From: Erysipelotrichaceae bacterium | GTDB taxonomy: Bacteria > Bacillota_I > Bacilli_A > Erysipelotrichales > Erysipelotrichaceae | Assembly (NCBI GenBank): GCA_017539105.1 | Contig: JAFYHQ010000045.1 | Span: 54,320-118,319, forward strand | Length of the DNA: 64,000 nucleotides | Reading direction: 5' to 3' | Shown: positions 3,008-27,772 of the stretch, one piece after another | How positions within the stretch are numbered: position 1 is the stretch's first letter | How the letters are laid out: every line of letters begins with the position of its first letter | Made by a program: the position numbers and the translations under genes | The notes under the pieces: model-generated | The model's input: only the letters and a program-made list of their open reading frames with translations | Told to the model about the DNA's origin: nothing | Database searches by the model: none

Positions 3008-3966
3008 TGAATGCTTGGATACATCTGATTGGCGGCGGTATTCTGCTGGTCTTCATGCCTCTTCTGATCGGCGGCATTGCGGACCTGTTTGCGGAGAGAT
3101 CCGGTGTCTTGTGTATGTGTGTTGAAGGTATCATGATCGCCGGCGCTTTCTTTGGCGTCCTGATGATCCGTCTGTTTGCGGAAACGATGGGCGTCTGGCC
3201 ATTGCTATTCCTGTCGATCGTCGTCTCGATGATCGCCGGTCTGTTTGCCGGGCTCTTGCATGGTTTTGCGGCGATCCATCTGAAAGCGGAACAGAACATT
3301 TCTTCGACTGCGATCAATACGTTCGTTCCTGCGCTGACGATGCTGATTTCGAAATCTGTCTTCGGTACCGATAACTTCACGTATTCCGCCAGTAAGTTCT
3401 TAATCTCAAAGGTTCCGATCCTTGGCGATATTCCGATCATCGGACCGATCTTCTTCCAGGGTACCTATGCGACGACGTATATCGGTATCACGCTGGTTCT
3501 GATTTTATGGTTCATCCTGTACAAGACCAAATTCGGTTTGCAGTTACGATCCACTGGTGAAAACCCGCAGGCTTCCGATTCTGTCGGTATCTCCGTCTAT
3601 GCGATGCGATATGCCGCGATGATGATTGCCGGTGCGATGGGTGGTTTGGCAGGTTTCACTTATATCCTGAATACGACTTACGTGTTCATGGGTTCCGTCT
3701 ATGGCTATGGCTTCCTGGCTCTGTCCATCGTTTCTCTGGGCCAGTGGAAACCAAGCGGAATCATGCTGGGAGCTCTGCTGTTTGGCGCGATCTCGGTCAT
3801 TTCTTCGACCTATTCCGTATTGCCTGTCCTGCAGAATCTTCCGATTCCGCCGGTCTTCTATTCGATCCTGCCTTATGTCATCACCCTGATCGTCGTTGCC
3901 CTGACGCCTGACAAGCACAATGCTCCGGCTGTCTGTGGCGAACCATACGACAAGTCTAAGAGATAA
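3007..3966 (+). CDS. ABC transporter permease (NupC-like second permease)
   Basis: Polytopic membrane protein that is the third member of the ATPase/permease/permease unit. Confidence 0.8.
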   Translation: MNAWIHLIGGGILLVFMPLLIGGIADLFAERSGVLCMCVEGIMIAGAFFGVLMIRLFAETMGVWPLLFLSIVVSMIAGLFAGLLHGFAAIHLKAEQNISSTAINTFVPALTMLISKSVFGTDNFTYSASKFLISKVPILGDIPIIGPIFFQGTYATTYIGITLVLILWFILYKTKFGLQLRSTGENPQASDSVGISVYAMRYAAMMIAGAMGGLAGFTYILNTTYVFMGSVYGYGFLALSIVSLGQWKPSGIMLGALLFGAISVISSTYSVLPVLQNLPIPPVFYSILPYVITLIVVALTPDKHNAPAVCGEPYDKSKR

Positions 3967-5618: not shown

Positions 5619-6233
5619 ATGAATCAAGCTGTATTAAGTAACAAGCAGGCAATCGTTACCGAGATCGTTGATCGTATGAAGAATTCCGACTCTACGGTTG
5701 TTTGCGAGTATCGTGGACTTAGCGTAGCTGAAGTGACGGAACTTAGAAGAAACTTAAGAGCGGAAGACGTTGAATTCAAGGTCTACAAAAACACCATGGT
5801 CGAAAGAGCGTGCGATGAAACCGGTTTTGGCGATCTGAAAGATGCGTTGGTTGGCCCAAATGCGTTTGCTTTCTCTAAGGATGCGACTGCTCCGGCTAGA
5901 GTACTTGCGAAGTTCGCGAAAAAACACAAAGCTCTGGTACTTAAGAAAGGCATCGTCGAAGGTAAGGTCGTTGATGAAAACATGATCAAGGAACTGTCTA
6001 TGCTTCCGAACCACGACGGCATGCTGTCGATGTTACTGAGCTGTTTACAGGCCCCGGTCAGTTCATTTGCCAGAGCGGTCAAAGCCGTGGCGGATGCCAG
6101 AGGGGATGGAGCACCTGCTACTCAAGAAGAAAAAGCAGAACCTGCTGCTGAAAAAGCGGTAGAAGAAACAAAGGCGGAAGCTCCTGCCGAGGAAGCAAAA
6201 GCCGAAGAAAAAGCTGCAGAAAGTGCAGAGTAA
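5619..6233 (+). CDS. rplJ: 50S ribosomal protein L10 with an unusual ~44-aa Ala/Glu/Lys-rich C-terminal tail
   Basis: MNQAVLSNKQAIVTEIVDRMK... is typical L10. RBS AGAAAGAGGG precedes the ATG at 5619, so the listed ORF start at 5589 is too early. The core is ~160 aa and the tail spans 6099-6233. Confidence 0.9.
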   Translation: MNQAVLSNKQAIVTEIVDRMKNSDSTVVCEYRGLSVAEVTELRRNLRAEDVEFKVYKNTMVERACDETGFGDLKDALVGPNAFAFSKDATAPARVLAKFAKKHKALVLKKGIVEGKVVDENMIKELSMLPNHDGMLSMLLSCLQAPVSSFARAVKAVADARGDGAPATQEEKAEPAAEKAVEETKAEAPAEEAKAEEKAAESAE

Positions 6234-7262: not shown

Positions 7263-10200
7263 ATGAAACAGACTTACAAAACATTGAATTCGGGTAAGCA
7301 TTCTACTCGCCGTGACTACTCTAAGGTTAGCGGTAATCTTGAATTGCCGAACCTGGTAGAGGTACAAACCGATTCTTTCAAGTGGTTTATCACTAAAGGA
7401 ATCAAAGAAGTATTTGATGATATTTATCCGATTCAGAACTATAGCGGCAATATACGCTTAAAACTATTGAATTATGAATTCGGCGAGCCGAAATACAGCG
7501 TTGCCGAAACCAAATATCGTGAAGAAGATTATCGCGCTCCTTTAAAAGCCAATATGGAACTGGAAATCATCGACGAAGCGACAGGACAGGTTTCTGTCAA
7601 ACGCGAGGAAGTTTTCCTTGGTGATTTCCCGATGATGACGCCGACAGGCACGTTCATCATCAATGGCGCTGAAAGAGTCATTGTTTCACAGATCGTCCGT
7701 TCGCCTGGCGCTTATTTTGACAGCCAGACCGATGACAAAACCAATAAGGAAACGTTCTCCGGAGAACTGATTCCTTCCAGAGGAACCTGGCTGGAATTTC
7801 TGACGGATGACAAGAAGAACGCTTTAGGCCGCATCATGAATATGTCGGTGGACCGTAAGCGTAAGATCCTGTCTACGATCCTTTTGAAATGCATCGGTTT
7901 CGCTTTGAATCTGGAAGACAACGAAAATAATTTCGATGTCACCAGAGCCAAGACATTCCTGGAAGCTTTAGGTCTGGAGATCCATGAGGACCTGATCAAC
8001 CAGAATGACGATCGTGAATATTTAAACATCTACGAAGCCATCTATACGTCTTTCTTAGGCGCTTATGAAGAGATTTCCTATACCCTTCAGGCGGATAAGA
8101 CCAAGACGATGGACGCGGCTTTGCTGGAAATGCACAAGAACCAGAAGCAGGATGAAGTCCCGACGGTCGAAGGTGCCGCCAACCTGATGAATGCGAAATT
8201 CTTCGATGAGAAGAAGTACGATCTGACATCGGCAGGCAGATACAAGCTCAGAAGAAAACTGAGTGTCGTCGACCGTATCGAGAATCATATCCTGGCGCAG
8301 GATGTGTGCACTGCCGAAGGCAAGGTCATTTACAAGGAAGGTACGCTGATCGAAAAGGCGCAGCGTAATGTCCTGAGAGAAGAACTGGCGAAAGGAAGCC
8401 ATGTCGAAGCATTCCCGTTCAGGCATATGTTCTCTCATCCGACGATCGTTGAAGTTCCTTCGAATCACAAAGCCGCCTTGAAAGGCCGTGTTCTGGCGAA
8501 CGATATCGATCTGAGTGACAGAACCTATATGATGGGTACCGTACTGACGGAAGACGATGTAAAACGCATCGCCAAAGAAGTCAGCACTGTCAGGATCTAC
8601 AGCGGTATCGTTGCAAGAGAAGTGCCGCTCAATTCCAAGAACTATCGTGCAGTCATGGATTATGGCCAGCGTTTCTTCGTATTGGGCAGACTGACCGATA
8701 AACATTCCGAAGACGTCAAAGTCGATGAGGAACAGGCTATGCCTTACTATCTGCCGGATCATGATACCTATATCCTGACGACAGACAAGGAAGAAGCCAT
8801 CAAGGCCAGAGTCGACAAAGGCGAACAGATCACCGCTTGGCTGGTCGGTACGGCTTGCCAGGTCGTGAACATCTATAATCCGAAAGACAATGCTTCAAAA
8901 ATCCGACTGATCGGCATCGATCCGCTCAACGACAAGAGATGCATCACGATGTCCGATATGCTGGCATTCTACAACTATATGTTTACCCTGCTGGATGGTG
9001 TCGGCTATACCGACGATATCGATATGCTGGGCAACCGTAGGATCCGTACCGTAGGCGAACTGATCCAGAATCAGTTCCGTATCGGTCTGTCGAGAATGGA
9101 AAAGGCGGTCAAAGAGAAGATGTCCATCACGGAAGTCGAAAACGCGACTCCGAAGACACTGACGAACAACCGTCCGTTATCCGGCGCGATCCGGGAATTC
9201 TTCTCCTCATCGCAGCTGTCCCAGTTCATGGACCAGCAGAATCCTTTGGCGGAACTGACAAACAAGCGTCGTATCTCCGCGTTAGGCCCGGGCGGTCTGA
9301 CCAGAGAGCGTGCAGGTTTCGAAGTCCGAGATGTCCATAACTCGCATTATGGCAGGATCTGTCCGATTGAGACGCCGGAAGGCCAGAACATCGGTCTGAT
9401 CTCTTATCTGACGACCTATGCGAAGATCAATGAGTATGGATTCATCCAGACTCCTTACCGCAAAGTCGATAAGAAGGGCAATGTCTCGGAAGACTATGTC
9501 TATCTGTCCGCGGATGATGAGAATGACTACATCATCGCGCAGGCAAACGAAGTCATCGATGGCAAGCTGGTCCATGACCAGGTCGTCTCGAGAAAAGCGG
9601 GAGAAACGATATTGGCGAACAGAGAAGATGTCGAACTTGCCGACGTATCGCCGAAGCAGGTCGTATCGGTCGCTGCCGCATGTATTCCGTTCCTTGAGAA
9701 CGATGACGCTTCCCGTGCCCTGATGGGTGCAAACATGCAGAGGCAGGCTGTGCCATTGCTGAACCCGCATGCTCCGTATGTCGGAACAGGCATCGAATCC
9801 AAGATCGCCAGAGACTCCGGAACAGGCCTGATTTCAGCACATGAAGGTACGGTAACCTATGTGGATGCCAACACCATCACCATCACTTCGAAAGATGGCG
9901 AGAAGCATGATTATGCCTTGGAAAAATTCGCACGTTCCAATGCCGGAACCTGCATCAATCACCGTCCGATCGTGGTCGATGGCGATGAAGTCAAAGTCGG
10001 CGATATCATTGCCGATGGTCCGAGCATGGATGATGGCGAACTGTCCCTGGGACAGAATGTGACGATCGCTTTCATGACATGGCATGGCTACAACTATGAG
10101 GATGCCATCATCATGTCCGAGCGTATGGTCAAAGACGATGTCTATACATCGATCCATATCGATGAATATTCCATCGAAAAACGTAAAACGAAACTGGGTG

Positions 10201-18344: not shown

Positions 18345-18605
18345 TTTTTTGAGGAATTATATCTTAAAATAGAGAAAAGCTGTGAACAGAAGAGTAGCTT
18401 GATCGGATAGCGTAGAGAATCTTTGGCTGGTGAAAAAAGATGTGGATGATCAGGGGAAGATGGTCTGGGAGCTGCCGGTCCGATATGAAGGCCGGACGCA
18501 TGCCTGCGTTACAGGGCCAGGATATGTCTGTATCCGATGAGGTGCTTTTGCACGAAATAAGGTGGTAACACGATGATAAGTCGTCCTTAGGGGCGGCTTT
18601 TTTGT
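18345..18605 (+). promoter_or_regulatory. Candidate T-box leader (Met specifier?) ending in a terminator hairpin, upstream of metQ
   Basis: A ~440-nt 5' UTR contains an AGAGAA/AGUAG (AG-box-like) region, a possible AUG specifier context (AAAGAUGUGG), a GCGUUA F-box-like element and AAAUAAGGUGGUAACACG (10/12 to the T-box core GGUGGUACCGCG). A 7-bp hairpin GUCGUCC-UUAG-GGGCGGC followed by U6 sits at 18580-18604. Confidence 0.4.
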
Positions 18606-18721: not shown

Positions 18722-19561
18722 ATGAAGAAAATCGTTACATTACTGTTTGTTTTACTGCTGCTCTGCGCTTGCGGAAACGGCGGTTCCGGATCAGGCGATA
18801 CGCCTGAGGAAGATAAGACGATCACGGTCGGAGTGAACCCGGTTCCTCATGCCGAAATTCTGGAGAAAGCGGTCAAGCCTGTGCTCGAAGCTCAAGGCTG
18901 GAAACTGGAAGTCGTGGTCTATCAGGACTATGTATTGCCAAATGAAAACCTGGTGGCAGGAGAACTGGATGCCAACTATTTCCAGACTCTGGGCTACATG
19001 AATGGACAGAATGAATCCCATGGCTGGACGCTGACTGCCATCAAGGGCGTGCATATCGAACCGATGGGACTTTATTCCGAGAAATACACGAGTGCTGCCG
19101 ATATCCCGGATGGCGCATATATTTCCGTTCCAAACGATGAAGACAACCGGACCAGAGCGTTGGAATTTCTGATTGCGAATGGTTTCCTGAACCCTGTGGA
19201 AGGAGAGCTGTCAGGCGATACCCTGAACGGCAATGCCGAGGCGAATCCGCATGGCTATCTGATCGTCGAACTGGAAGCTGCGCAATTGCCTCTTGCACTG
19301 GCCGATGTGGATGCATCCGTCATTAATGGAAACTATGCGTTAGGCGCAGGTCTTCCTGCGACCCATCCGGCACTGCTGGTAGAAAGCTTCGATGCGGAAA
19401 CCACGATCCGTCGCACCAACTTTATTGTCGTACTGGAAGGAAACGAGAAATCAGAAAAGATACAGGCGTTGGTCGATGCGATCACTTCGGATGCGGTAGC
19501 GAAGTATATCGAAGATACCTACAAAGGTGCGGTCATCACTTCTTTTGTCGATCCGCAGTAA
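18722..19561 (+). CDS. metQ: Methionine ABC transporter substrate-binding lipoprotein (NlpA/MetQ family)
   Basis: Lipoprotein signal LLLLCACGNG followed by the MetQ fold (TITVGVNPVPHAEILE...). Confidence 0.85.
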   Translation: MKKIVTLLFVLLLLCACGNGGSGSGDTPEEDKTITVGVNPVPHAEILEKAVKPVLEAQGWKLEVVVYQDYVLPNENLVAGELDANYFQTLGYMNGQNESHGWTLTAIKGVHIEPMGLYSEKYTSAADIPDGAYISVPNDEDNRTRALEFLIANGFLNPVEGELSGDTLNGNAEANPHGYLIVELEAAQLPLALADVDASVINGNYALGAGLPATHPALLVESFDAETTIRRTNFIVVLEGNEKSEKIQALVDAITSDAVAKYIEDTYKGAVITSFVDPQ

Positions 19562-19583
19562 TCGATAGAAACAGCTGATACTT

Positions 19584-19620
19584 AGAGATGTTCCGTCTTT
19601 TCTGAACATCTCTCTTTCTT
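19584..19620 (+). terminator. Hairpin + T-rich tract between metQ and metN (partial terminator or attenuator)
   Basis: AGAGATGTTC...GAACATCTCT is a 10-bp stem with a 10-nt loop, followed by CTTTCTT. Confidence 0.35.
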
Positions 19621-19631
19621 AGAGGTCAGAT

Positions 19632-20600
19632 ATGATAAAACTGGAAAACGTATGTAAAGATTTCGGAGATCTCAAGGTCCTTAAAGATATTACGCTTGAG
19701 ATCGCAGATCACGAGATCTATGGAATCATCGGACAGAGCGGCGCAGGGAAGTCGACGCTTTTGCGATGCATCAATGGTTTGGAAGAATATCAGTCCGGTC
19801 ACATCTATGTCGATGACGTGGAAGTGTCCGCAAAGGATACAAAGCAGCTGCATCTTCTGCAGAAGAAGATGGGCATGATCTTTCAGAATTTCAATCTGCT
19901 GGAACGTCTGGATGTCTATGACAACGTGGCGCTGCCGATGAAATTCTGGGGCATCAATACCCATACGCCCGAAGCGCAGGCAAAGATCAAGGAACTGATT
20001 TCGCTGGTCGGGCTGCAGGATAAGATGCATGTCCGTCCGAAGGAACTTTCCGGCGGGCAAAAGCAGAGAGTGGCGATAGCAAGGGCGCTGGTTCTTGATC
20101 CGCAGATCCTCTTATGCGATGAAGCGACCTCCGCCTTGGATCCGGCCATCACCAGAGAGATTCTGGCCCTGCTTCAAGAGATCAACAGGAATCTGGGCAT
20201 CACCATCATCGTCGTGACACACCAGATGGAAGTCGTGAAACAGATCTGTGAAAAAGTCGCTTTCATCAAAGAAGGAAGAGTCCTGGCCATAGGAAAACCG
20301 GAAGAACTGTTCATCCGCCCGACCAGGGACATCAAAGCCTTCCTGCATGAAGACAGCGAACTGCTGCCGGACAACGGATTGAATATCCAGCTCTTCTTTA
20401 CCGACGAAAGCTCGGACGAACCTGTCATCTCCCAGATGGCCAGAAAGCTGGATATCGATTTCTCTATTTCCTGGGCAAAACTTGAGGACTTCCGTTCCAA
20501 TGTGTACGGTTCGCTGGTAATCACGATAAATGAAGAAGATAAAGACAAAGTTCTGGATTATCTGGATTCGGTCAATGTCTTATGGGAGGTTTTGGACTGA
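19632..20600 (+). CDS. metN: Methionine ABC transporter ATP-binding protein with a C-terminal NIL/ACT-like regulatory domain
   Basis: Walker A GQSGAGKST, signature LSGGQKQR, Walker B LLCDEATSALD. Confidence 0.9.
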   Translation: MIKLENVCKDFGDLKVLKDITLEIADHEIYGIIGQSGAGKSTLLRCINGLEEYQSGHIYVDDVEVSAKDTKQLHLLQKKMGMIFQNFNLLERLDVYDNVALPMKFWGINTHTPEAQAKIKELISLVGLQDKMHVRPKELSGGQKQRVAIARALVLDPQILLCDEATSALDPAITREILALLQEINRNLGITIIVVTHQMEVVKQICEKVAFIKEGRVLAIGKPEELFIRPTRDIKAFLHEDSELLPDNGLNIQLFFTDESSDEPVISQMARKLDIDFSISWAKLEDFRSNVYGSLVITINEEDKDKVLDYLDSVNVLWEVLD

Positions 20601-20601
20601 T

Positions 20602-21237
20602 ATGATGGATATTATTCTGAATGCAAGCAGGCAAACTCTGTATATGGTCTTCTGGTCGACATTGTTTTCTGTCATCCTTGGCTTTATTCCTGCCATCATC
20701 CTGACATTGACGGCTCCGGATGGCCTGCGTCCCAACAAGATCGTGTATGAGACATTGTCTTTGCTTGTGAACATCTTCCGTTCGTTTCCTTTCATCATAT
20801 TGCTGGTGATCATCATTCCATTTACCAGATTGGTGGCTGGAAAAGCGATCGGTACCAGAGCGGCCATCGTTCCTTTGACCGTTTCGGCGATTCCTTACAT
20901 CGCCAGGATTTTCGAGACCAGTCTTCGCGAGACTGATCCCGGAGTCATCGAAGCGGCACGCTCATTCGGCGCTTCCGATCTGCAGATCCTGTTCCGTGTC
21001 TATATCAAAGAGTCGATCCCGAGAATGTTGAATGGAGTGATCCTGCTGATCATCTCGCTGGTTGGTTATTCAGCCATGGCAGGCACCGTAGGCGGAGGAG
21101 GCATCGGCGATCTGGCGATCCGTTACGGCTATCAGCAGTACAAGACGGAATACCTTCTGGTCTGTTCGATCATCCTGATCGTTTTCGTTCAGCTCGTACA
21201 GATGCTGGGAAACTATCTGTATAAGAGGCTATCCTAG
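20602..21237 (+). CDS. metI: Methionine ABC transporter permease
   Basis: The EAA-like loop (EAARSFGASDLQILFRVY) is present. The ATG at 20602 follows the metN stop; the listed ORF start at 20530 overlaps metN. Confidence 0.85.
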   Translation: MMDIILNASRQTLYMVFWSTLFSVILGFIPAIILTLTAPDGLRPNKIVYETLSLLVNIFRSFPFIILLVIIIPFTRLVAGKAIGTRAAIVPLTVSAIPYIARIFETSLRETDPGVIEAARSFGASDLQILFRVYIKESIPRMLNGVILLIISLVGYSAMAGTVGGGGIGDLAIRYGYQQYKTEYLLVCSIILIVFVQLVQMLGNYLYKRLS

Positions 21238-22032
21238 ATGAAGAAGGAAACTGTATCGATCCTATCGCAAAGAGGAACACTGATTCCTGCCGATATCGTT
21301 TCGGTTGAAGGCAAAGGAGGCCTGCTGATCCTGGCGCATGGCTTCAAGGCGGAACGTACGGAGGACGGAAGATTTACATTTGTAGCGGAACAGATGGCAG
21401 AGCACGGATTCCATTCAATACGGATGGATTTTCCTGCTTGCGGCGATTCAAAAGAACCTTTTATCGCTTACAGTCTGGATCACTGTCTGGAGGACATGGA
21501 GAGCTGCTTCCTGCATATGAAGGAACGCTATGAGATCGATGACCGTCTCTATCTTCTCGGCTACAGCATGGGCGGAAGACTGATTTCGCTGTTTCTCAGA
21601 AAACATCCGGAAATAAAGAAACTGGTGTTCTGGGCCGCCTGCAACCGTTCATTCGATCTGGATGATCTGTTTCTGGGACAGTCATTCAGGACACTCAAGG
21701 AACAATGCGACAGGGAAGGCTCCTGCGATTTCTATGATATCTATACACAGGAAACCGACCGGATGTCGGCAGAATTCGTCAGCAACATGCTGGAAGAGGA
21801 TGCTTTAGGTCCCTTGGAAAGTTTCAAAGGAGATGCCCTGATCCTTCAGGGAGATCATGATCAGACCATCGAAGTCGGAAACGCGCAATGGATCTATGAT
21901 CATCTGAAACAGGCTTCCGGCAGGAATCTGCATTACATCCATGGCGCCGATCATGGTTTCGGTCTATGGGATGGACGGACGCAAGACAGCGAGGAACTGA
22001 TCAAAACGACCGTATCCTTCCTGAAAGGATAA
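21238..22032 (+). CDS. Alpha/beta-hydrolase fold protein (dienelactone hydrolase/S9-like)
   Basis: HGFKAE...GYSMGG nucleophile elbow and GADHGF near the C-terminus. Its start abuts the metI stop. Confidence 0.65.
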   Translation: MKKETVSILSQRGTLIPADIVSVEGKGGLLILAHGFKAERTEDGRFTFVAEQMAEHGFHSIRMDFPACGDSKEPFIAYSLDHCLEDMESCFLHMKERYEIDDRLYLLGYSMGGRLISLFLRKHPEIKKLVFWAACNRSFDLDDLFLGQSFRTLKEQCDREGSCDFYDIYTQETDRMSAEFVSNMLEEDALGPLESFKGDALILQGDHDQTIEVGNAQWIYDHLKQASGRNLHYIHGADHGFGLWDGRTQDSEELIKTTVSFLKG

Positions 22033-22060
22033 ATGTATCCGTTTACATTGTTCCGGTATA

Positions 22061-22089
22061 TTGAAACCGCAGATCAATGATGTTAAGAT
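22061..22089 (+). promoter_or_regulatory. Promoter (-35 TTGAAA 22061-22066, 17-nt spacer, -10 TAAGAT 22084-22089) driving the riboswitch-led ECF S-component transcript
   Basis: Hexamers are read from the sequence. The predicted transcription start coincides with the riboswitch P1 5' strand. Confidence 0.4.
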
Positions 22090-22095
22090 TATTAA

Positions 22096-22212
22096 GTCCA
22101 TAAAGAGAGATGGAGAGACAAGCTCTGTGATATCTCAGCAACCTCACTGTAAGGTGCTAAAGCTTGAACGATGGGTGAAAAACATTTGCCCATCTTGTGA
22201 TGGGCTTTCTTT
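22096..22212 (+). promoter_or_regulatory. SAM-I-like (S-box) riboswitch lacking P4, with a terminator expression platform
   Basis: AGAGAGAUGGAGAGA matches the S-box P2/K-turn hallmark AGAGAGGUGGAGGGA. GCAACC...GGUGC forms the conserved P3 with a bulged A. The loop CAAGCU (22120-22125) is complementary to J3/4 AGCUUG (22161-22166), giving a pseudoknot. P1 is UCCAU (22097-22101) with AUGGG (22171-22175). The antiterminator GAUGGGU (22170-22176) with GCCCAUC (22188-22194) competes with the terminator GCCCAUC-UUGUG-GAUGGGC + UUUCUUU (22188-22212). Confidence 0.5.
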
Positions 22213-22235
22213 ATGAAAATAGGGGGAGAAATAGT

Positions 22236-22781
22236 ATGAAAAATGATTCTGTCAAGAAAGTTGTCGCTACCGGTATCGGTGCCGCATTGTTCTTTGTGCT
22301 GGCTCGTTTCGTAGCGGTTCCTAGCGGCATTCCGAACACGAATATCACGTTCCAGTATGCGATCCAGGCGGTATTTGCCGTACTGTACGGACCGGTCGTA
22401 GGATGTCTGTCAGGTTTCATCGGCCATGTGCTTTGTGACATGAGCTGGGGCGGCGTCTGGTGGAGCTGGGCGTTTGCAACAGGTGTCTATGGCCTGGTTG
22501 TCGGTTTCTTTGCAGACAAGATCAATGTCAAAGACGGCTACTTCGCTAAGAAAGAATTCTTCACGTTCGTTGTAGCAAACCTGGTGGCCAACTTGCTGGC
22601 ATGGCTGCTGATCGCTCCGATCGGCGATATCGTCATCTACAAAGAAGATGCCAAACTGGTCTTCACGCAGGGTCTGATTGCCGGCGCAGGCGACTTCCTG
22701 TTCGCAGTCGTGCTGGGCGGCTTGCTGCTCTACGGCTACTCCAAGACCGTTGCCAAGACCGGCTCGCTGGATAAAGAGTAG
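22236..22781 (+). CDS. ECF transporter S (substrate-specific) component, substrate unknown (SAM/methionine-related suggested by the leader)
   Basis: A ~180-aa hydrophobic protein with the S-component pattern (GIGAALFFVLARFVAVP..., ...LYGPVVGCLSGFIGHVL). RBS GGGGGAG precedes the ATG at 22236. An ECF A1A2-T module follows. Confidence 0.65.
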   Translation: MKNDSVKKVVATGIGAALFFVLARFVAVPSGIPNTNITFQYAIQAVFAVLYGPVVGCLSGFIGHVLCDMSWGGVWWSWAFATGVYGLVVGFFADKINVKDGYFAKKEFFTFVVANLVANLLAWLLIAPIGDIVIYKEDAKLVFTQGLIAGAGDFLFAVVLGGLLLYGYSKTVAKTGSLDKE

Positions 22782-22805
22782 ATCAAGATCCAGATTGCAA
22801 TGAAA

Positions 22806-22843
22806 AAGAAGTATCCATGATACTTCTTTTTTCTTTTTTTTGG
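22806..22843 (+). terminator. Rho-independent terminator after the S-component gene
   Basis: AAGAAGTAT-CCATGA-TACTTCTT followed by a run of T. Confidence 0.65.
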
Positions 22844-22976
22844 TTTTCAGGGAGATGAAATGAAAAAACTTTACAATATTATCTTAACAGGTGATTGTGA
22901 AACAATGGTGATAATTCCTGCATCATTTCCAGGAATCGCAGATATGCGTGATGAACATATTGTATAATGATGAAGT

Positions 22977-24689
22977 ATGAAACCGATTATTTCTTTTATG
23001 GATTTTTCTTTCCAGTACAATGCCCAGAAGCAGCCGACGCTGAAGCATATCGATCTGGACATCTATCCGGGAGAAAAGATCCTGATCTGCGGAGCCAGCG
23101 GTTCCGGCAAGAGCACGTTGGGCAATTGTATCAATGGCCTGATTCCTTTTTCTTATGAAGGAAAGATGGAAGGGGAACTGACGGTCGATGGAATCGTAAC
23201 GAAAGATTCTTCCATTTTTGAACTGTCGACCAGAGTGGGTACGGTCCTTCAGGATCCGGATGGACAGTTTGTCGGACTGACGGTGGCGGAAGATATCGCT
23301 TTCGCTTTGGAGAATGACTGCGTGGAGCAGGATGCGATGAAGAAGCAGATCATGGAAGCGGCAAAAAAGGTAGGCATCGAGGAACGCATGAACAATGCTC
23401 CGTATGATCTTTCCGGCGGTCAGAAACAGCGGGTTTCCATGGCAGGCGTCATCGTCGATGATGTCAAGATTTTATTATTCGATGAACCGTTGGCCAACCT
23501 GGATCCATATACCGGCAAGACCGCCATCGAACTGATCGATCTGATCAAGAAGCAGACCGATACCACGGTCCTGATCATCGAACACCGCATCGAGGATGTC
23601 CTGTGGGAAAAAGTCGATCGCATCATTTTGATGGATGACGGCCGGATCGTTTCCGATACGAAACCGGAAGAACTGCTGCGCAGCAGTCTTTTGTGGAAAT
23701 ATGGGATCAGGGAACCGTTGTATCTCACGCTGCTGAAATATGCGGGAATCGATGTGAATAAAGTCGAAGGGATCGACAACATCAAAGATCTACAATTAAA
23801 AGCAAACGACAAGAAAAAGATACGCGACTGGTATGAAGCCCAGAGCAAGCCTGAACGTGTGAACAATAATGATTACATCCTGGAAGTCGAACATGTGGAT
23901 TTTTCTTACGACAACAGCGAGCAGATCCTTTTCGATGTTTCTTTCAAAGTGAAACAGGGAGAGATGCTGGCGATCGTCGGAAAGAACGGCGCAGGGAAGT
24001 CCACCATGTGCAAGGTCATCTGCGGTTTCGAAAGAAACAAGACCGGGAAGATCCTTTTCAAAGGAGAAGACGTGACCCAATCCAGCATCCGTGCCAGAGC
24101 ATCCCATATCGGATACGTCATGCAGAACCCGAACCAGATGATCTCCCAGCCGATGATTTTCGATGAAGTCGCCATGGGCATCCGCAATCTGGGATTAAGT
24201 GAAGAAGAACTGCAGAAACGGGTCTATGACACACTTAAGATCTGCGGCTTGTATGAATTCCGCAACTGGCCGATTTCTGCCTTGAGTTTCGGACAGAAGA
24301 AACGAGTCACGATCGCATCCATCCTGGTCATGGGACCGGAAGTGGTGATGCTGGATGAACCGACCGCGGGACAGGATCTCAGACATTACACCGAAATCAT
24401 GGAATTCCTGAAAGAACTGAACGAAAAAGGCATCACGATTATCCTGATCACGCACGACATGCATCTGATGCTGGAATATACCGACCGTTCCATTGTCTTT
24501 ACCGATGGACGCATCGTTGCAGACAAGTCGGGTTCTGCCGTCCTTTGCGACAGGGAACTGATACAGAGAGCAGCTTTGAAGGAGACGTCGCTCTTCTATA
24601 TCGCGGAAATGACAGGCATCGATGATCCTGTGGATTTCGTCGACTGCTTCATCGCCTGCGACAGAAAGGAGCGGGACCGTGGCAACTAA
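22977..24689 (+). CDS. ECF transporter fused ATPase (EcfA1-EcfA2 tandem ABC domains)
   Basis: Two ABC domains (Walker A GASGSGKST and GKNGAGKST; signatures LSGGQKQR and LSFGQKKR); the length of 570 aa fits an A1A2 fusion. Confidence 0.9.
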   Translation: MKPIISFMDFSFQYNAQKQPTLKHIDLDIYPGEKILICGASGSGKSTLGNCINGLIPFSYEGKMEGELTVDGIVTKDSSIFELSTRVGTVLQDPDGQFVGLTVAEDIAFALENDCVEQDAMKKQIMEAAKKVGIEERMNNAPYDLSGGQKQRVSMAGVIVDDVKILLFDEPLANLDPYTGKTAIELIDLIKKQTDTTVLIIEHRIEDVLWEKVDRIILMDDGRIVSDTKPEELLRSSLLWKYGIREPLYLTLLKYAGIDVNKVEGIDNIKDLQLKANDKKKIRDWYEAQSKPERVNNNDYILEVEHVDFSYDNSEQILFDVSFKVKQGEMLAIVGKNGAGKSTMCKVICGFERNKTGKILFKGEDVTQSSIRARASHIGYVMQNPNQMISQPMIFDEVAMGIRNLGLSEEELQKRVYDTLKICGLYEFRNWPISALSFGQKKRVTIASILVMGPEVVMLDEPTAGQDLRHYTEIMEFLKELNEKGITIILITHDMHLMLEYTDRSIVFTDGRIVADKSGSAVLCDRELIQRAALKETSLFYIAEMTGIDDPVDFVDCFIACDRKERDRGN

Positions 24690-25512
24690 AGTACTGAACT
24701 ATATTCCGAAAGAAAGCTTCATCCATGGTCTTTCCGGAACCACCAAGCTGATCATTTTCCTGACCTTTTCCGTTTTATGCGGTCTTTCCTTCGATACCAG
24801 AGTTTTATTGTTCCTGCTGCTGCTTTCCTTTGTCGGTTTTTCTCTAAGCAATATCCGGCTTTCCGAAATCCGTCTGATGAGCACGTTCCTGATCATCTTC
24901 CTGGTAATGAATTTCATATTATTATTCCTTTTCAATCCGGAATACGGTCCTGAACTGTATGGTTCAAGAACGGTACTGTTCCATCTGTTCGGCAGATATG
25001 ATGTGACCATGGAACAGCTGTTCTATCAGTTCAATGTTTCCCTGAAATATGTCATCGGTTTCCCGATCGCGATCCTGTTCATTTCGACGACCAACCCGAG
25101 CGAATTCGCTTCCTCGCTGTCACAGATCGGCGTGCCGTACCGGATCAGCTATTCCGTTTCCCTGGCACTGCGATACATCCCGGATATCCAGCAGGATTAC
25201 CACGAGATCGCCCAGTCCCAGGAAGCAAGAGGCGTCGCTTTAGGCAAGGATGTCAAGTTCTTTGAACGTCTGAAGAATTCCGCCAAGATCCTGCTTCCGC
25301 TGGTACTGACCAGCCTCAACCGCATCGATGACATTTCCAATTCGATGCAGCTGAGAAGCTTCGGCAAATATAAGAAGAGAACCTGGTATACCAAGAAGAA
25401 AATGACGGCTGCGGATTACAGCGTCATTGCGTTCTGTGTCGTGCTGTTCGTAGTGGGCATGATCATCACCAATCAGGGCGGGAACAACCTTTTTAATCCT
25501 TTTGTGAGGTAG
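24679..25512 (+). CDS. ECF transporter transmembrane (T) component (EcfT/CbiQ family)
   Basis: Polytopic protein with the EcfT-like ARG region (SLALRYIPDIQ...AQSQEARG). A likely GTG start at 24679 is preceded by AAAGGAG and overlaps the ecfA stop; the longer ORF from the ATG at 24622 overlaps ecfA by 68 nt. Confidence 0.8.
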   Translation: MATKVLNYIPKESFIHGLSGTTKLIIFLTFSVLCGLSFDTRVLLFLLLLSFVGFSLSNIRLSEIRLMSTFLIIFLVMNFILLFLFNPEYGPELYGSRTVLFHLFGRYDVTMEQLFYQFNVSLKYVIGFPIAILFISTTNPSEFASSLSQIGVPYRISYSVSLALRYIPDIQQDYHEIAQSQEARGVALGKDVKFFERLKNSAKILLPLVLTSLNRIDDISNSMQLRSFGKYKKRTWYTKKKMTAADYSVIAFCVVLFVVGMIITNQGGNNLFNPFVR

Positions 25513-25514
25513 CT

Positions 25515-26357
25515 ATGAAAAAGATGCTTGTAGTTCAGACAGATTTTACTTATAAAGAAGGCGCGGTAGCAGCCATGTATGGCGTGATCAAGAGCGTGGA
25601 TCCAGACATCGAGATCATCACCGCGACCCATGAGATCCCCCAGTACGATACTTGGTCGGCATCCTATCGCCTGTACCAGTATATCGACTTCTGGCCGAAA
25701 GGAACGATCTTCATTTCCGTGGTCGATCCCGGCGTAGGAACGGACCGCAGAGCCTGTGTCGCAAAGACAAGGAACGGCTACTATATCGTGACTCCGGATA
25801 ACGGTTCTCTGACACATGCGGATCATTATTTCGGAATCGAGGAAGTTAGACAGATCGATGAAACGATCAACCGTCTGCATCGCGAAGACAACGGAGCGGT
25901 ATCGATCTTTCACGGGCGCGATCTTTTCGGTTACTGTGCAGCCAGACTGGCTTCGGGGATCATTTCCTATGAAGAAGTCGGACCTGTATACGATATCTCT
26001 GAAATCGTCCGTCACGACATCAAGGAAGCGGAAATTTTTGAAGACAGGATCGAAGGAATGTTCGAGATCAATGACCCGAATTTCGGCAATCTCTGGACGA
26101 ATATCCTCTTGAGCGATTTCCTGAAAAAACACAAGATGGGCGATCTGGTTCATACCGCGATCTATCGCGACGAAGAGAAAGTCTTCGATGACGTTCTTCC
26201 ATACTACGATTCCTTCGGCAAGGCTCCGAAGCACAGCGTGATGATCTACAACAATGAGATCAATAAGATGGGTCTGGCCGAAGTGATGGGCAATCTCTGC
26301 GAAGATTATGACTTAGGCTACGGCGAAGCATACAAGGTGGTGTTCTATGATGAATAA
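25515..26357 (+). CDS. SAM hydroxide adenosyltransferase family protein (DUF62; fluorinase/chlorinase-like fold), paralog 1
   Basis: N-terminal QTDFTYKEGAVAAMYGV, plus DNG, FHGRDLF and GNLWTNI motifs, are shared with SalL/FlA/DUF62 SAM-cleaving enzymes. Start is 3 nt after the ecfT stop. Confidence 0.75.
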   Translation: MKKMLVVQTDFTYKEGAVAAMYGVIKSVDPDIEIITATHEIPQYDTWSASYRLYQYIDFWPKGTIFISVVDPGVGTDRRACVAKTRNGYYIVTPDNGSLTHADHYFGIEEVRQIDETINRLHREDNGAVSIFHGRDLFGYCAARLASGIISYEEVGPVYDISEIVRHDIKEAEIFEDRIEGMFEINDPNFGNLWTNILLSDFLKKHKMGDLVHTAIYRDEEKVFDDVLPYYDSFGKAPKHSVMIYNNEINKMGLAEVMGNLCEDYDLGYGEAYKVVFYDE

Positions 26358-27186
26358 ACTTCTGGTATTTCAGACAGACTTCGGTCTGGACGATGGGGCG
26401 ATCAGCGCCATGGAAGGCGTCGCTTTCAGCGTCGACTTCGATCTGAATATCCGCCATCTGACGCACAATATCCCTCAGTACAACATTTTTGATGCGTCCT
26501 ATCGTTTGTATCAGGCCATCAATTACTGGCCTTCAGGGACCGTTTTTGTGTCTGTAGTAGACCCCGGCGTGGGATCGGATCGCAAGGCGGTCGTCGCCAG
26601 GACGAAGAACGACTACTATGTCGTCACCCCGGACAACGGAACCCTGACCCATATCGACCGTTTCCTGGGCATCGAAGAACTGCGGGAGATCGATGAGAAG
26701 ACAAACAGGCTGGCAGGTTCGGATCTGTCTTATACGTTCCATGGCAGAGATGTCTTCGCCTATACCGGAGCCAGACTCGCCTCCGGAAAGATCACATTCG
26801 AAGAAGTAGGACCAAAGATCGATCTGAAAGATCTGGTCCGTCAGGAACTCTATGGCTGCCATCCGATCGAAAATGGCATCATGGGGCAGATCGATATCCT
26901 GGATGTCCGTTTCGGTTCCTTGTGGACTTCGATCTCTTATAAAGATTTCATCAGCTGCGGCTTCCAGATCGGCGATGACATCCTGGTCGAGATCTTCCAC
27001 AACGATCAGAAAGTCTATTCCAACCGGATCAACTATGGAAAATCTTTTGCGGATGTCGCCATCAGCGAACCGCTGATCTATATGAATTCCGCCTATCACA
27101 TGGCGGTCGCGATCAACCAGGGATCTTTCTCCAAGGTCTATGGCATCGGCGTAGGCTCCGAATGGAAGATCACCATGACCAGATGA
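26347..27186 (+). CDS. SAM hydroxide adenosyltransferase family protein (DUF62), paralog 2
   Basis: Same motif set (QTDFGLDDGAISAMEGV, DNG, FHGRDVF, GSLWTSI). It overlaps paralog 1 by 11 nt (translational coupling). Confidence 0.75.
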   Translation: MMNKLLVFQTDFGLDDGAISAMEGVAFSVDFDLNIRHLTHNIPQYNIFDASYRLYQAINYWPSGTVFVSVVDPGVGSDRKAVVARTKNDYYVVTPDNGTLTHIDRFLGIEELREIDEKTNRLAGSDLSYTFHGRDVFAYTGARLASGKITFEEVGPKIDLKDLVRQELYGCHPIENGIMGQIDILDVRFGSLWTSISYKDFISCGFQIGDDILVEIFHNDQKVYSNRINYGKSFADVAISEPLIYMNSAYHMAVAINQGSFSKVYGIGVGSEWKITMTR

Positions 27187-27268
27187 TTTAACAATTCTTT
27201 CACAAGCGACTGATATACTTTTTTTCGAATCATAAGAAAGATTATTGTATGATAGAAAGGAGGGCTTG

Positions 27269-27772
27269 ATGAATAAGAATAAAGATCTTGATATCTTTGA
27301 ACACGACGACTGGCTGAAAAAAGAAAGAGCCAGAGAAAGCAGGATCTCTGCCTGGGATTTTGATGATGCAAAGAAACTGCGTCAGGAACACGAAGATGAC
27401 TGCGACGCTGAAGATGTGGCGCAGCTGCATCGCATTGAACACAAACGCAGCAATACGATGAAAACCCCATCCTTATCCCGGATGAACGGAACGACTTCAT
27501 CAAACGATGTCGTCTGGTTCATCATCGACATCATCGCCATGTTTGTTCTGGTATTCCTGAATAACATGATATTCCGGCGCTGGGATTTCTATTGGCCGAT
27601 CATCATCCTGTTCCTGGGAATCAATCCCGGCATCTTTATCTGGCTGGCTGTCTTCAGACGCTTCCCGCCGGCAAGATTCAGTAAGCTCTTGCTGTGTATC
27701 GCGATCCTTATCGAAGTGATCGGATTCCTGTATTTTATGATTTATTATCATGGTTATTATTATTTTTTTTAG
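27269..27772 (+). CDS. Hypothetical membrane protein (acidic N-terminal cytoplasmic region, 3-4 C-terminal TM helices), upstream partner of an SPFH protein
   Basis: RBS AAGGAGGG precedes the ATG at 27269. The C-terminal half is hydrophobic. There is a 13-nt gap to the SPFH gene. Confidence 0.5.
   Translation: MNKNKDLDIFEHDDWLKKERARESRISAWDFDDAKKLRQEHEDDCDAEDVAQLHRIEHKRSNTMKTPSLSRMNGTTSSNDVVWFIIDIIAMFVLVFLNNMIFRRWDFYWPIIILFLGINPGIFIWLAVFRRFPPARFSKLLLCIAILIEVIGFLYFMIYYHGYYYFF

Follow-up and report, generated by a model that had tools for sequence, protein, structure and literature searches.

Among the riboswitches that respond to S-adenosylmethionine (SAM), the SAM-I class (S-box; Rfam family RF00162) varies in the presence of its helix P4: in the RF00162 alignment, the first principal component corresponds to deletion of this helix (PMC12714719, Nat Commun 2025). 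According to the same work, P4 is missing from some natural SAM-I variants and aptamers designed without it respond to SAM, and it is stated there, citing Trausch 2014 and Heppell 2011, that SAM aptamers can function without this helix; P4-less variants are not mentioned by Barrick and Breaker 2007. In two related classes, SAM-I/IV and SAM-IV, a hairpin lies 3' of helix P1 and a second pseudoknot, PK-2, reaches the P3 loop (PMC2864571, PMC6890682), and the P2 helix of SAM-I/IV has no internal loop (PMC2864571). The present work deals with a stretch of 64,000 nucleotides from an Erysipelotrichaceae bacterium (contig JAFYHQ010000045.1 of assembly GCA_017539105.1, positions 54,320 to 118,319; hereafter the window), in which a leader at 22061-22212 precedes the gene for the S component of an energy-coupling factor (ECF) transporter. 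We consider it highly probable (about 85%) that this leader is a P4-less SAM-I riboswitch working as a transcriptional OFF switch of the S-component gene, and possibly also of the ATPase, T-component and DUF62 genes behind it. The P4-less form has already been reported and the RNA of the window is an ordinary member of its family.

The whole window was scanned with Rfam at the gathering threshold, and the region 21950-22300 was re-scanned permissively. Three matches were obtained in the first scan, namely SAM (RF00162), a T-box leader and the ribosomal protein L10 leader RF00557. The RF00162 match lies at 22095-22177 on the forward strand and reaches 55.6 bits compared with a gathering score of 44.4 (E = 4e-10); its alignment covers model positions 1-108, with 17 P4 positions deleted and a very short P3. 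In the permissive scan RF00162 was again the top family, and one weaker match, overlapping it, belonged to a different SAM-clan family. A first-pass annotation, made from the letters of the sequence, had proposed a SAM-I aptamer without P4, combined with a terminator/antiterminator platform, ahead of an ECF S component, and had named an Infernal search with the Rfam models as the way to check it; the score above threshold confirms the SAM-I aptamer of this proposal. Moreover, a strict P4-less pattern matched the window once and none of 100 shuffled sequences. The absence of P4 does not exclude the RNA from SAM-I, since this helix is regarded as dispensable in the literature and natural members without it exist (PMC12714719). 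The parts of the aptamer, all on the forward strand, are the following.

22095-22177, forward strand: P4-less SAM-I aptamer of 83 nucleotides (RF00162 score and strict-pattern match).
22096-22101 (5' strand, GUCCAU) with 22171-22176 (3' strand, AUGGGU), forward strand: helix P1, four Watson-Crick and two G.U pairs, invariant in seven orthologous leaders.
22107-22136, forward strand: helix P2, 22107-22111 paired with 22132-22136 (Rfam alignment).
22112-22114 (GGA) opposite 22126-22131 (UGUGAU), forward strand: internal loop of P2, of the kink-turn (K-turn) type (Rfam alignment).
22115-22117 with 22123-22125, forward strand: helix P2a (GAG/CUC), loop ACAAG (Rfam alignment).
22119-22122 (5' strand CAAG, in the P2a loop) with 22163-22166 (CUUG), forward strand: pseudoknot PK-1 (covariation).
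22137-22158, forward strand: helix P3, AGCA(A)CC/GGUGCU, with bulged A22141 and a nine-nucleotide loop (Rfam alignment).
22158-22169, forward strand: UAAAGCUUGAAC, the joining segments J3/4 to J4/1 that stand in place of P4, holding the PK-1 3' strand (22163-22166) and a residual pair, G22162-C22169.

The S-box core AGAGAGAUGGAGAGA occupies 22104-22118. Joining segment J1/2 (AAGAG, 22103-22107) and the P3 pocket sequence GCAACC ... GGUGC, flanked by P1, are invariant in the seven orthologues, the pocket strands being GCA(A)CC at 22138-22143 and GGUGC at 22153-22157. All the pocket and tertiary-contact nucleotides of the SAM-I core are intact, no variant nucleotide occurs in J1/2, P3 or P1, and the core sequence is indistinguishable from that of SAM-I. 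The core of P1 consists of UCCAU (22097-22101) and AUGGG (22171-22175), to which the pair G22096.U22176 is added, and at the sequence level a K-turn signature is recognized in G22113-A22114 opposite G22129-A22130 with the bulge UGU. The S-box core, the P3 strands with their bulged A and the short P1 are thus found where the first-pass annotation had placed them. Its description of the P4 region held as regards the spacing, with 12 nucleotides (22158-22169) from P3 to the P1 3' strand and no P4 helix, but P4 has not wholly gone, as the closing pair G22162-C22169 remains. The six-base-pair pseudoknot that had been drawn was an overcount: the palindrome AAGCUU does give six complementary bases in the sequence (CAAGCU/AGCUUG), but two of the pairs would draw on C22123 and U22124 of P2a, and conservation fails at the fifth pair; the longer pseudoknot was therefore rejected in favour of the canonical four pairs of 22119-22122 with 22163-22166.

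Around this aptamer, the elements needed for a transcriptional switch were located as follows.

22061-22089, forward strand: promoter-like site with -35 TTGAAA (22061-22066), a 17-nucleotide spacer and extended -10 TG-n-TAAGAT (22081-22089) (consensus scan).
22170-22194, forward strand: antiterminator hairpin of GAUGGGUGAA, which includes the P1 3' strand, and UUUGCCCAUC, which includes the terminator 5' arm; 22170-22179 with 22185-22194, 10 standard pairs, -12.6 kcal/mol.
22188-22212, forward strand: intrinsic terminator GCCCAUC-UUGU-GAUGGGC (hairpin 22188-22205) followed by UUUCUUU (terminator scan; -13.3 kcal/mol).

From the position of the promoter, the RNA 5' end falls at about the first base of P1, the transcript probably starting at about 22095-22097. 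The arrangement TTGA(A/T)...TG-TAAGAT is kept in six related loci with the riboswitch (L001, L004, L006, L007, L008 and L010) as well as in sister leaders without it. The antiterminator is made of the P1 3' strand plus four extra bases, and its formation excludes both P1 and the terminator. These mutually exclusive pairings confirm the earlier claim that the P1 3' strand is shared between P1 and an antiterminator competing with the terminator; the terminator loop, which had been read as UUGUG, is corrected to the four nucleotides UUGU. Computed without ligand or pseudoknot terms, the OFF fold (-22.9 kcal/mol) and the ON fold (-21.5 kcal/mol) are nearly isoenergetic. Furthermore, the minimum-free-energy fold of the full leader includes the antiterminator, with a stability above that of shuffled sequences (z = -2.7).

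On the basis of what is established for S-boxes, the following course of events may be proposed. Transcription would begin at about 22095, and P2 with its K-turn, P3 and the 4-bp pseudoknot would fold first. SAM, bound between P1 and P3, would then keep the short P1 (22096-22101 with 22171-22176) closed, leaving 22188-22194 free to pair with 22199-22205 as the terminator, and the polymerase would halt in the U-tract at about 22206-22212. With SAM low, the P1 3' strand would pair with 22185-22194 to give the antiterminator, allowing read-through into the S-component gene. SAM binding by the RNA of the window, the OFF logic and any extension of control past the S-component gene are what this analogy would predict.

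The same geometry was sought in a metagenome collection with a pattern that requires CCAU at the 5' end, the SAM-I core and a spacing of exactly nine bases from GGUGCYAA to GAUGG, and that represents one particular P1. At least 120 loci were found, and when 20 of them were re-scanned with Rfam all 20 matched RF00162 above the gathering score (47-73 bits), P4 being deleted in both of the two alignments that were inspected. The metagenome matches listed, together with the window and six relatives, gave an alignment of 123 distinct aptamers of 75-95 nucleotides. In this alignment 91.3% of the cells were paired compared with 79.0% in shuffles, and the covariation score of 0.342 (0.113 in shuffles) was reached by none of 500 shuffles; with the partners slid by 1-3 columns, the score was 0.013-0.072. 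In P2, double-sided changes are present at four of the five pairs and 99.3% of the cells are paired, while in the pseudoknot three of the four pairs covary (AU/UA, AU/GC, GC/CG), with 99.2% of the cells paired; covariation was seen in P2a as well. The fifth pseudoknot pair is C-G in 87 aptamers and C.U in 34. The residual P4 pair, corresponding to G22162-C22169 of the window, is found in 113 of the 123 aptamers (GC in 44, GU in 38 and UA in 31) and also covaries. The six outer pairs of P3 are 100% paired, and none of the 123 aptamers departs from the G-A ... G-A signature of the K-turn. The P1 positions on either side of the central four pairs match poorly, which means that P1 is short throughout the P4-less class.

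Among the matches listed, a terminator-like hairpin with a T-tract lies downstream in 105 of 121 leaders, and the first downstream genes include those for MetN (16), MetK (12), MetQ (6) and O-acetylhomoserine sulfhydrylase (3), so that in many organisms this minimal aptamer governs the genes of the classical S-box regulon. P4-less SAM-I aptamers occur commonly in metagenomes of gut and rumen, and their abundance there in front of metK, metN and metQ runs counter to the first-pass annotation, which had set the P4-less form apart from the canonical S-boxes.

Conservation was further assessed at the level of the gene. Species-representative genomes were scanned with an alignment of S-component homologues, giving 80 loci (L001-L080, with the S-component match at about position 6001 in most of them); the close homologues of the protein are annotated from metagenome-assembled genomes of Erysipelotrichaceae, and the 13 closest loci belong to ruminant-gut Erysipelotrichaceae and relatives. 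The P4-less leader is kept in six of these 13, i.e. the six loci named above with the promoter. In these six full leaders P2 has undergone compensatory changes (GAUGG/UAUC, GGCGG/ACC, GACUG/GUC), and the terminators of the orthologues have done so as well, for example GCCCGUC/GAUGGGC and ACCCAUCA/UGAUGGGU, the pairing of both terminator and antiterminator being kept through differing sequences. The P3 loops of the seven orthologous leaders vary in sequence and in length (about 5 to 12 nucleotides).

Several points weigh against the switch proposed here. P1 is short and weak, its four Watson-Crick and two G.U pairs amounting to +1.4 kcal/mol in isolation, P3 is minimal, and affinity has been reported to drop as P4 shortens (PMC12714719). 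P1 and the pseudoknot, being invariant in the seven orthologues, provide no covariation evidence within the clade, and the central four P1 pairs, being preset by the search pattern, are uninformative in the set of 123 aptamers. The full-length RNA can also adopt a four-way fold (-27.9 kcal/mol) that is more stable than either the OFF or the ON fold. Control of the downstream genes is uncertain, owing to the AT-rich hairpin and its T-run behind the S-component gene, and SAM sensing and termination by this RNA are predictions from its sequence. In addition, six of the 13 closest loci (L002, L005, L009, L011, L012 and L013) carry no riboswitch but a short leader behind the same promoter, and in L003 (about 5840-5985) J3/4 is mostly deleted, including most of the pseudoknot strand, with the remainder kept; selection on the riboswitch is therefore not strong in this clade.

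Part of this evidence would also fit a decaying relic, that is, a descendant of SAM-I which has shed P4 and most of P3, has no useful SAM binding and is being lost. The leaders without riboswitch before the same gene, the truncated J3/4 of L003, the minimal P1 and P3 and the reported fall in affinity all agree with such a view, and in L009 and L011 (about 5900-6000) nothing is left before a T-run and the ribosome-binding site except GCGTCCAAAAGA, the initial bases of P1 and J1/2, a remnant that looks like the loss of a riboswitch and not like a gain elsewhere. Nevertheless, the ligand-pocket and tertiary-contact nucleotides are intact in the window, in seven species the element persists, its P2 and terminator having changed in a compensatory manner that does not resemble random drift, and P4-less aptamers of this geometry are widespread and control metK and other essential genes, all of which makes a relic quite unlikely. 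Apart from this question, the sister species display stages of riboswitch loss, with L003 at one stage and L009 and L011 at another.

A very improbable alternative assigns the hairpin 22170-22194 to P4 of a four-helix SAM-I riboswitch and takes the terminator 3' arm, AUGGGC at 22200-22205, as the P1 3' strand, in which case SAM would favour the fold without the terminator and the element would be an ON switch or a purely post-transcriptional structure. The four-way fold is indeed the most stable of the three computed. Furthermore, in three metagenome loci the Rfam match spans 111 nucleotides compared with 80-87 for the pattern match (L102, 3053-3163; L197, 1716-1826; L092, 61-171), these lengths suggesting that Infernal took the downstream hairpin as P4; a second ATGG, usable in the four-way fold, occurs downstream in 100 of the 121 P4-less leaders among the matches listed; and in L004 the complementarity of the terminator 3' arm to the P1 5' strand exceeds that to the terminator 5' arm. 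However, a likeness between the terminator 3' arm (GAUGGGC) and the P1 3' strand (GAUGGGU) is expected in terminator/antiterminator designs, because both pair with the same segment, and the P1-like arm can be understood as a by-product of such a design. In the window itself, Infernal favours the P4-less alignment. Moreover, 15 leaders possess a terminator but no second ATGG, among them the top-scoring metK leaders L116 (72.9 bits) and L145 (64.4 bits), from which it follows that the P4-less aptamer stands on its own, and in L100 the ribosome-binding site comes directly after P1 with no hairpin. The four-way fold also needs the terminator 3' arm to have been transcribed, i.e. after the termination decision, and ON logic makes no sense for metK, metN and metQ leaders of the same architecture. 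The 111-nucleotide matches would constitute an annotation artefact able to hide P4-less aptamers in automated surveys.

It is scarcely credible that the ligand has shifted to match the transporter cargo, for instance to S-adenosylhomocysteine, to the (R)-sulfonium epimer of SAM or to another adenosyl compound, for which the DUF62 enzymes of the operon offer circumstantial support, characterised members preferring (R,S)-SAM (10.1101/2025.08.29.672840, PMC10491745), but against which stand the unaltered SAM-I core and the identical P4-less aptamers preceding metK and methionine-importer genes, for which SAM is the natural signal. Finally, the SAM-I/IV-like architecture suggested in the first-pass annotation is not borne out, both SAM-I/IV and SAM-IV being ruled out by the K-turn loop and PK-1, by the lack of a conserved PK-2 partner and by RF00162 having the best score in the clan. 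One candidate for PK-2, four nucleotides long, between UCAC of the P3 loop and GUGA just after P1, was dropped, since the P3 loops of the seven orthologues differ in sequence and length.

The P4-less SAM-I switch would act on a group of genes that lie behind it in the following order.

22236-22781, forward strand: ECF S component, 181 amino acids, with ribosome-binding site GGGGGAG at 22223-22229 (PF07155, 156.6 bits, cutoff 26.7; NF010182, 212.3 bits, cutoff 99).
22802-22832, forward strand: AT-rich 14-bp hairpin with a T-run, a possible partial terminator (terminator scan).
22977-24689, forward strand: fused double ECF ATPase, 570 amino acids (two ABC_tran domains and DUF3744; TIGR04520, TIGR04521).
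24622-25512, forward strand: ECF T component of the CbiQ family (PF02361, 92.9 bits); the start codon is uncertain, and the longest open reading frame overlaps the end of the ATPase gene.
25515-26357 and 26347-27186, forward strand: two tandem DUF62/SAM hydroxide adenosyltransferase paralogues (PF01887 and PF20257 in both).

The hairpin at 22802-22832 could uncouple expression of the S-component gene from the rest of the module. The gap of 195 nucleotides between the S-component and ATPase genes also contains a weak promoter-like site at 22855-22882. Across the 80 loci the module of S component, ATPase and T component is nearly always intact, and in L005, L007, L009 and L011 no ATPase, T-component or DUF62 gene stands behind the S-component gene. 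Both PF07155 and NF010182 carry the database name of an ECF-type riboflavin transporter S component. This name is without support here, since the protein has no detectable relative among solved structures: no match to these was obtained with the single sequence or with a profile (E up to 10). Likewise, Rfam detected no flavin mononucleotide (FMN) riboswitch, either in the window or in 24 homologous loci that were scanned. Before the same transporter in Clostridia, a crude regular expression gave no SAM riboswitch, nor did Rfam scans of 24 loci at the gathering threshold, and riboswitch control is therefore lineage-specific.

As regards the hydrolases, the relatives of the DUF62 paralogues in the Protein Data Bank include 2zbu (E = 1e-38), PH0463 and an entry named (R)-SAM hydrolase. 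Both paralogues contain the motifs VVDPGVG(S/T)DR(K/R) and FHGRD, on which the His-Arg-Asp triad of the family may lie. Such a triad is conserved and catalytic in DUF62 SAM hydrolases (PMC10491745), and the characterised enzymes convert SAM to adenosine and methionine, those that were stereo-tested preferring the inactive (R)-sulfonium epimer (PMC10491745, 10.1101/2025.08.29.672840). The stereoselectivity of the present pair is not inferable, because both score far below the cutoffs of the (R)-SAM hydrolase equivalogs (106 and 138.8 bits for NF058624, cutoff 350; 95.6 and 116.5 bits for NF053629, cutoff 470). The two proteins are 47-48% identical, the pair is kept in L001-L004, L006, L012, L035 and L043, and they may act on different SAM epimers or on different substrates. 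DUF62 adjoins the S-component module in 30 of the 80 loci, in 8 as two copies behind the T-component gene and in 22 as one copy immediately ahead of the S-component gene. The DUF62 literature examined makes no mention of transporters.

This conserved adjacency suggests, as far as gene context can tell, that the cargo of the S component is related to methionine or SAM. An RNA-only search of the metagenomes independently returned two more contigs in which a P4-less SAM riboswitch precedes the module, with S components 41-43% identical to that of the window; in L102 the order is riboswitch, S component (41% identity), ATPase and T component, and in L197 it is riboswitch, DUF62 and S component (43% identity). 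The operon immediately upstream in the window adds supporting context, as it encodes a methionine importer under a T-box leader (18373-18591, 111 bits by Rfam), behind which the genes metQ, metN, metI and an alpha/beta hydrolase (Hydrolase_4) extend over 18722-22032. Going one step further, the gene context leads us to a tentative proposal that we regard as possible and yet rather doubtful, namely that in free-living gut Firmicutes the module, with an S component mis-named as a riboflavin protein, imports SAM, its inactive (R)-epimer, which arises spontaneously, or a close adenosyl-sulfonium relative, that DUF62 splits this cargo to methionine and adenosine, and that in some lineages the system is turned on at low SAM. 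OFF regulation by SAM fits such scavenging better than a housekeeping repair of damaged SAM. Bacterial uptake of SAM is typically confined to obligate parasites (PMC12676344, 2025), and no description of an ECF-type SAM importer was found in the literature.

The RNA itself matters little, since it is picked up by standard Rfam annotation and SAM-I aptamers of the P4-less form have been described before. The part worth following is the transporter-hydrolase module that it marks: the riboswitch serves as a functional label which, with the DUF62 neighbours, points to a SAM-related cargo for a family of S components named after riboflavin. If this were true, SAM import would occur in free-living gut anaerobes, in contrast with the obligate-parasite view cited above, and DUF62 enzymes would acquire a nutritional role. 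Furthermore, the metagenome loci offer structural and design work many natural examples of the minimal SAM-I aptamer, characterised by a constant nine-nucleotide linker, a 4-bp pseudoknot and one closing pair.

A number of further observations were made on the P4-less leaders and on the surroundings of the module. Among the matches listed, about 25 of the 121 leaders precede two small protein families (13 and 12 members), for which no match was found in Pfam or PHROGs; examples are L110, L103, L112 and L115 (about 118 amino acids) for one, and L158, L094, L139 and L093 (variable length) for the other, and a motif '...EGF.F' shared by both was noticed by eye. Seven leaders among the same matches precede proteins of the FGase/N-formylglutamate-amidohydrolase family (PF05013). 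The genes of all these families are SAM-regulated with no obvious tie to sulfur metabolism. The reverse strand of contig L109 carries a nearly identical pair of P4-less SAM riboswitches (3802-3883 and 7593-7674), one ahead of a 931-amino-acid tandem-repeat protein and the other ahead of a protein of 438 amino acids. In the window, the specifier of the T-box was read by eye as AUG at 18462-18464 (GGAAG-AUG-G), and the adjacent operons would be two methionine-related uptake systems under two RNA sensors, one for the charging of tRNA-Met and one for SAM. The Hydrolase_4 gene keeps its synteny in every close relative. The DUF62 genes are immediately followed by an open reading frame of 175 amino acids (27245-27772), which has no match in Pfam and recurs, among the 80 loci, only in L001 (76% identity). 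The L10 leader (RF00557, 5481-5596, 67 bits) is unrelated to the riboswitch.

When the locus is set beside known systems, the transporters may be taken first. The SAM transporters of Chlamydia (PMC3104491) would share their substrate with the present one if the scavenging proposal were true, but they are of an unrelated transporter type and belong to obligate intracellular bacteria without SAM synthesis, whereas the hosts here are free-living gut anaerobes. The first-pass annotation had referred to ECF S components linked to S-boxes and to methionine precursors; such a family does exist as a database prediction, MtsTUV (TCDB 3.A.1.29, 'methionine precursor'), beside HtsTUV (3.A.1.31, 'unknown'), and both resemble the module in having a dedicated S component, ATPase and T component and a link to methionine or SAM through regulation, a table of TCDB being all that turned up in the literature on MtsT, HtsT and UPF0397 (PMC3654945). 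The comparison of these systems with the S component of the window was made by family description. The PF07155/UPF0397 proteins probably correspond to HtsT, of the 'unknown' family, and not to MtsT.

With regard to the RNA, SAM-I/IV (RF01725) and SAM-IV (RF00634) have in common with the leader the SAM-binding core and the lack of P4 within the multi-helix junction; unlike them, the leader keeps the P2 internal loop and PK-1, and its sole 3' hairpin is the terminator. The P4-less aptamers of PMC12714719, natural and designed, represent the same phenomenon, the likeness being drawn from their description; that work singles out a group within Actinomycetota, whereas the present set comes from Erysipelotrichaceae genomes and many gut and rumen metagenome contigs. 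Compared with canonical SAM-I riboswitches (RF00162), such as yitJ of B. subtilis and metF of T. tengcongensis, the aptamer of the window differs in having P4 reduced to the one pair G22162-C22169, a short P3 and a short P1, and 83 nucleotides compared with the 108 positions of the model. It shares with them the junction and pocket nucleotides, P1, P2 with its K-turn, P2a and P3, the pseudoknot PK-1 from the P2a loop to J3/4, the terminator/antiterminator OFF platform and a score above the gathering threshold of the family.

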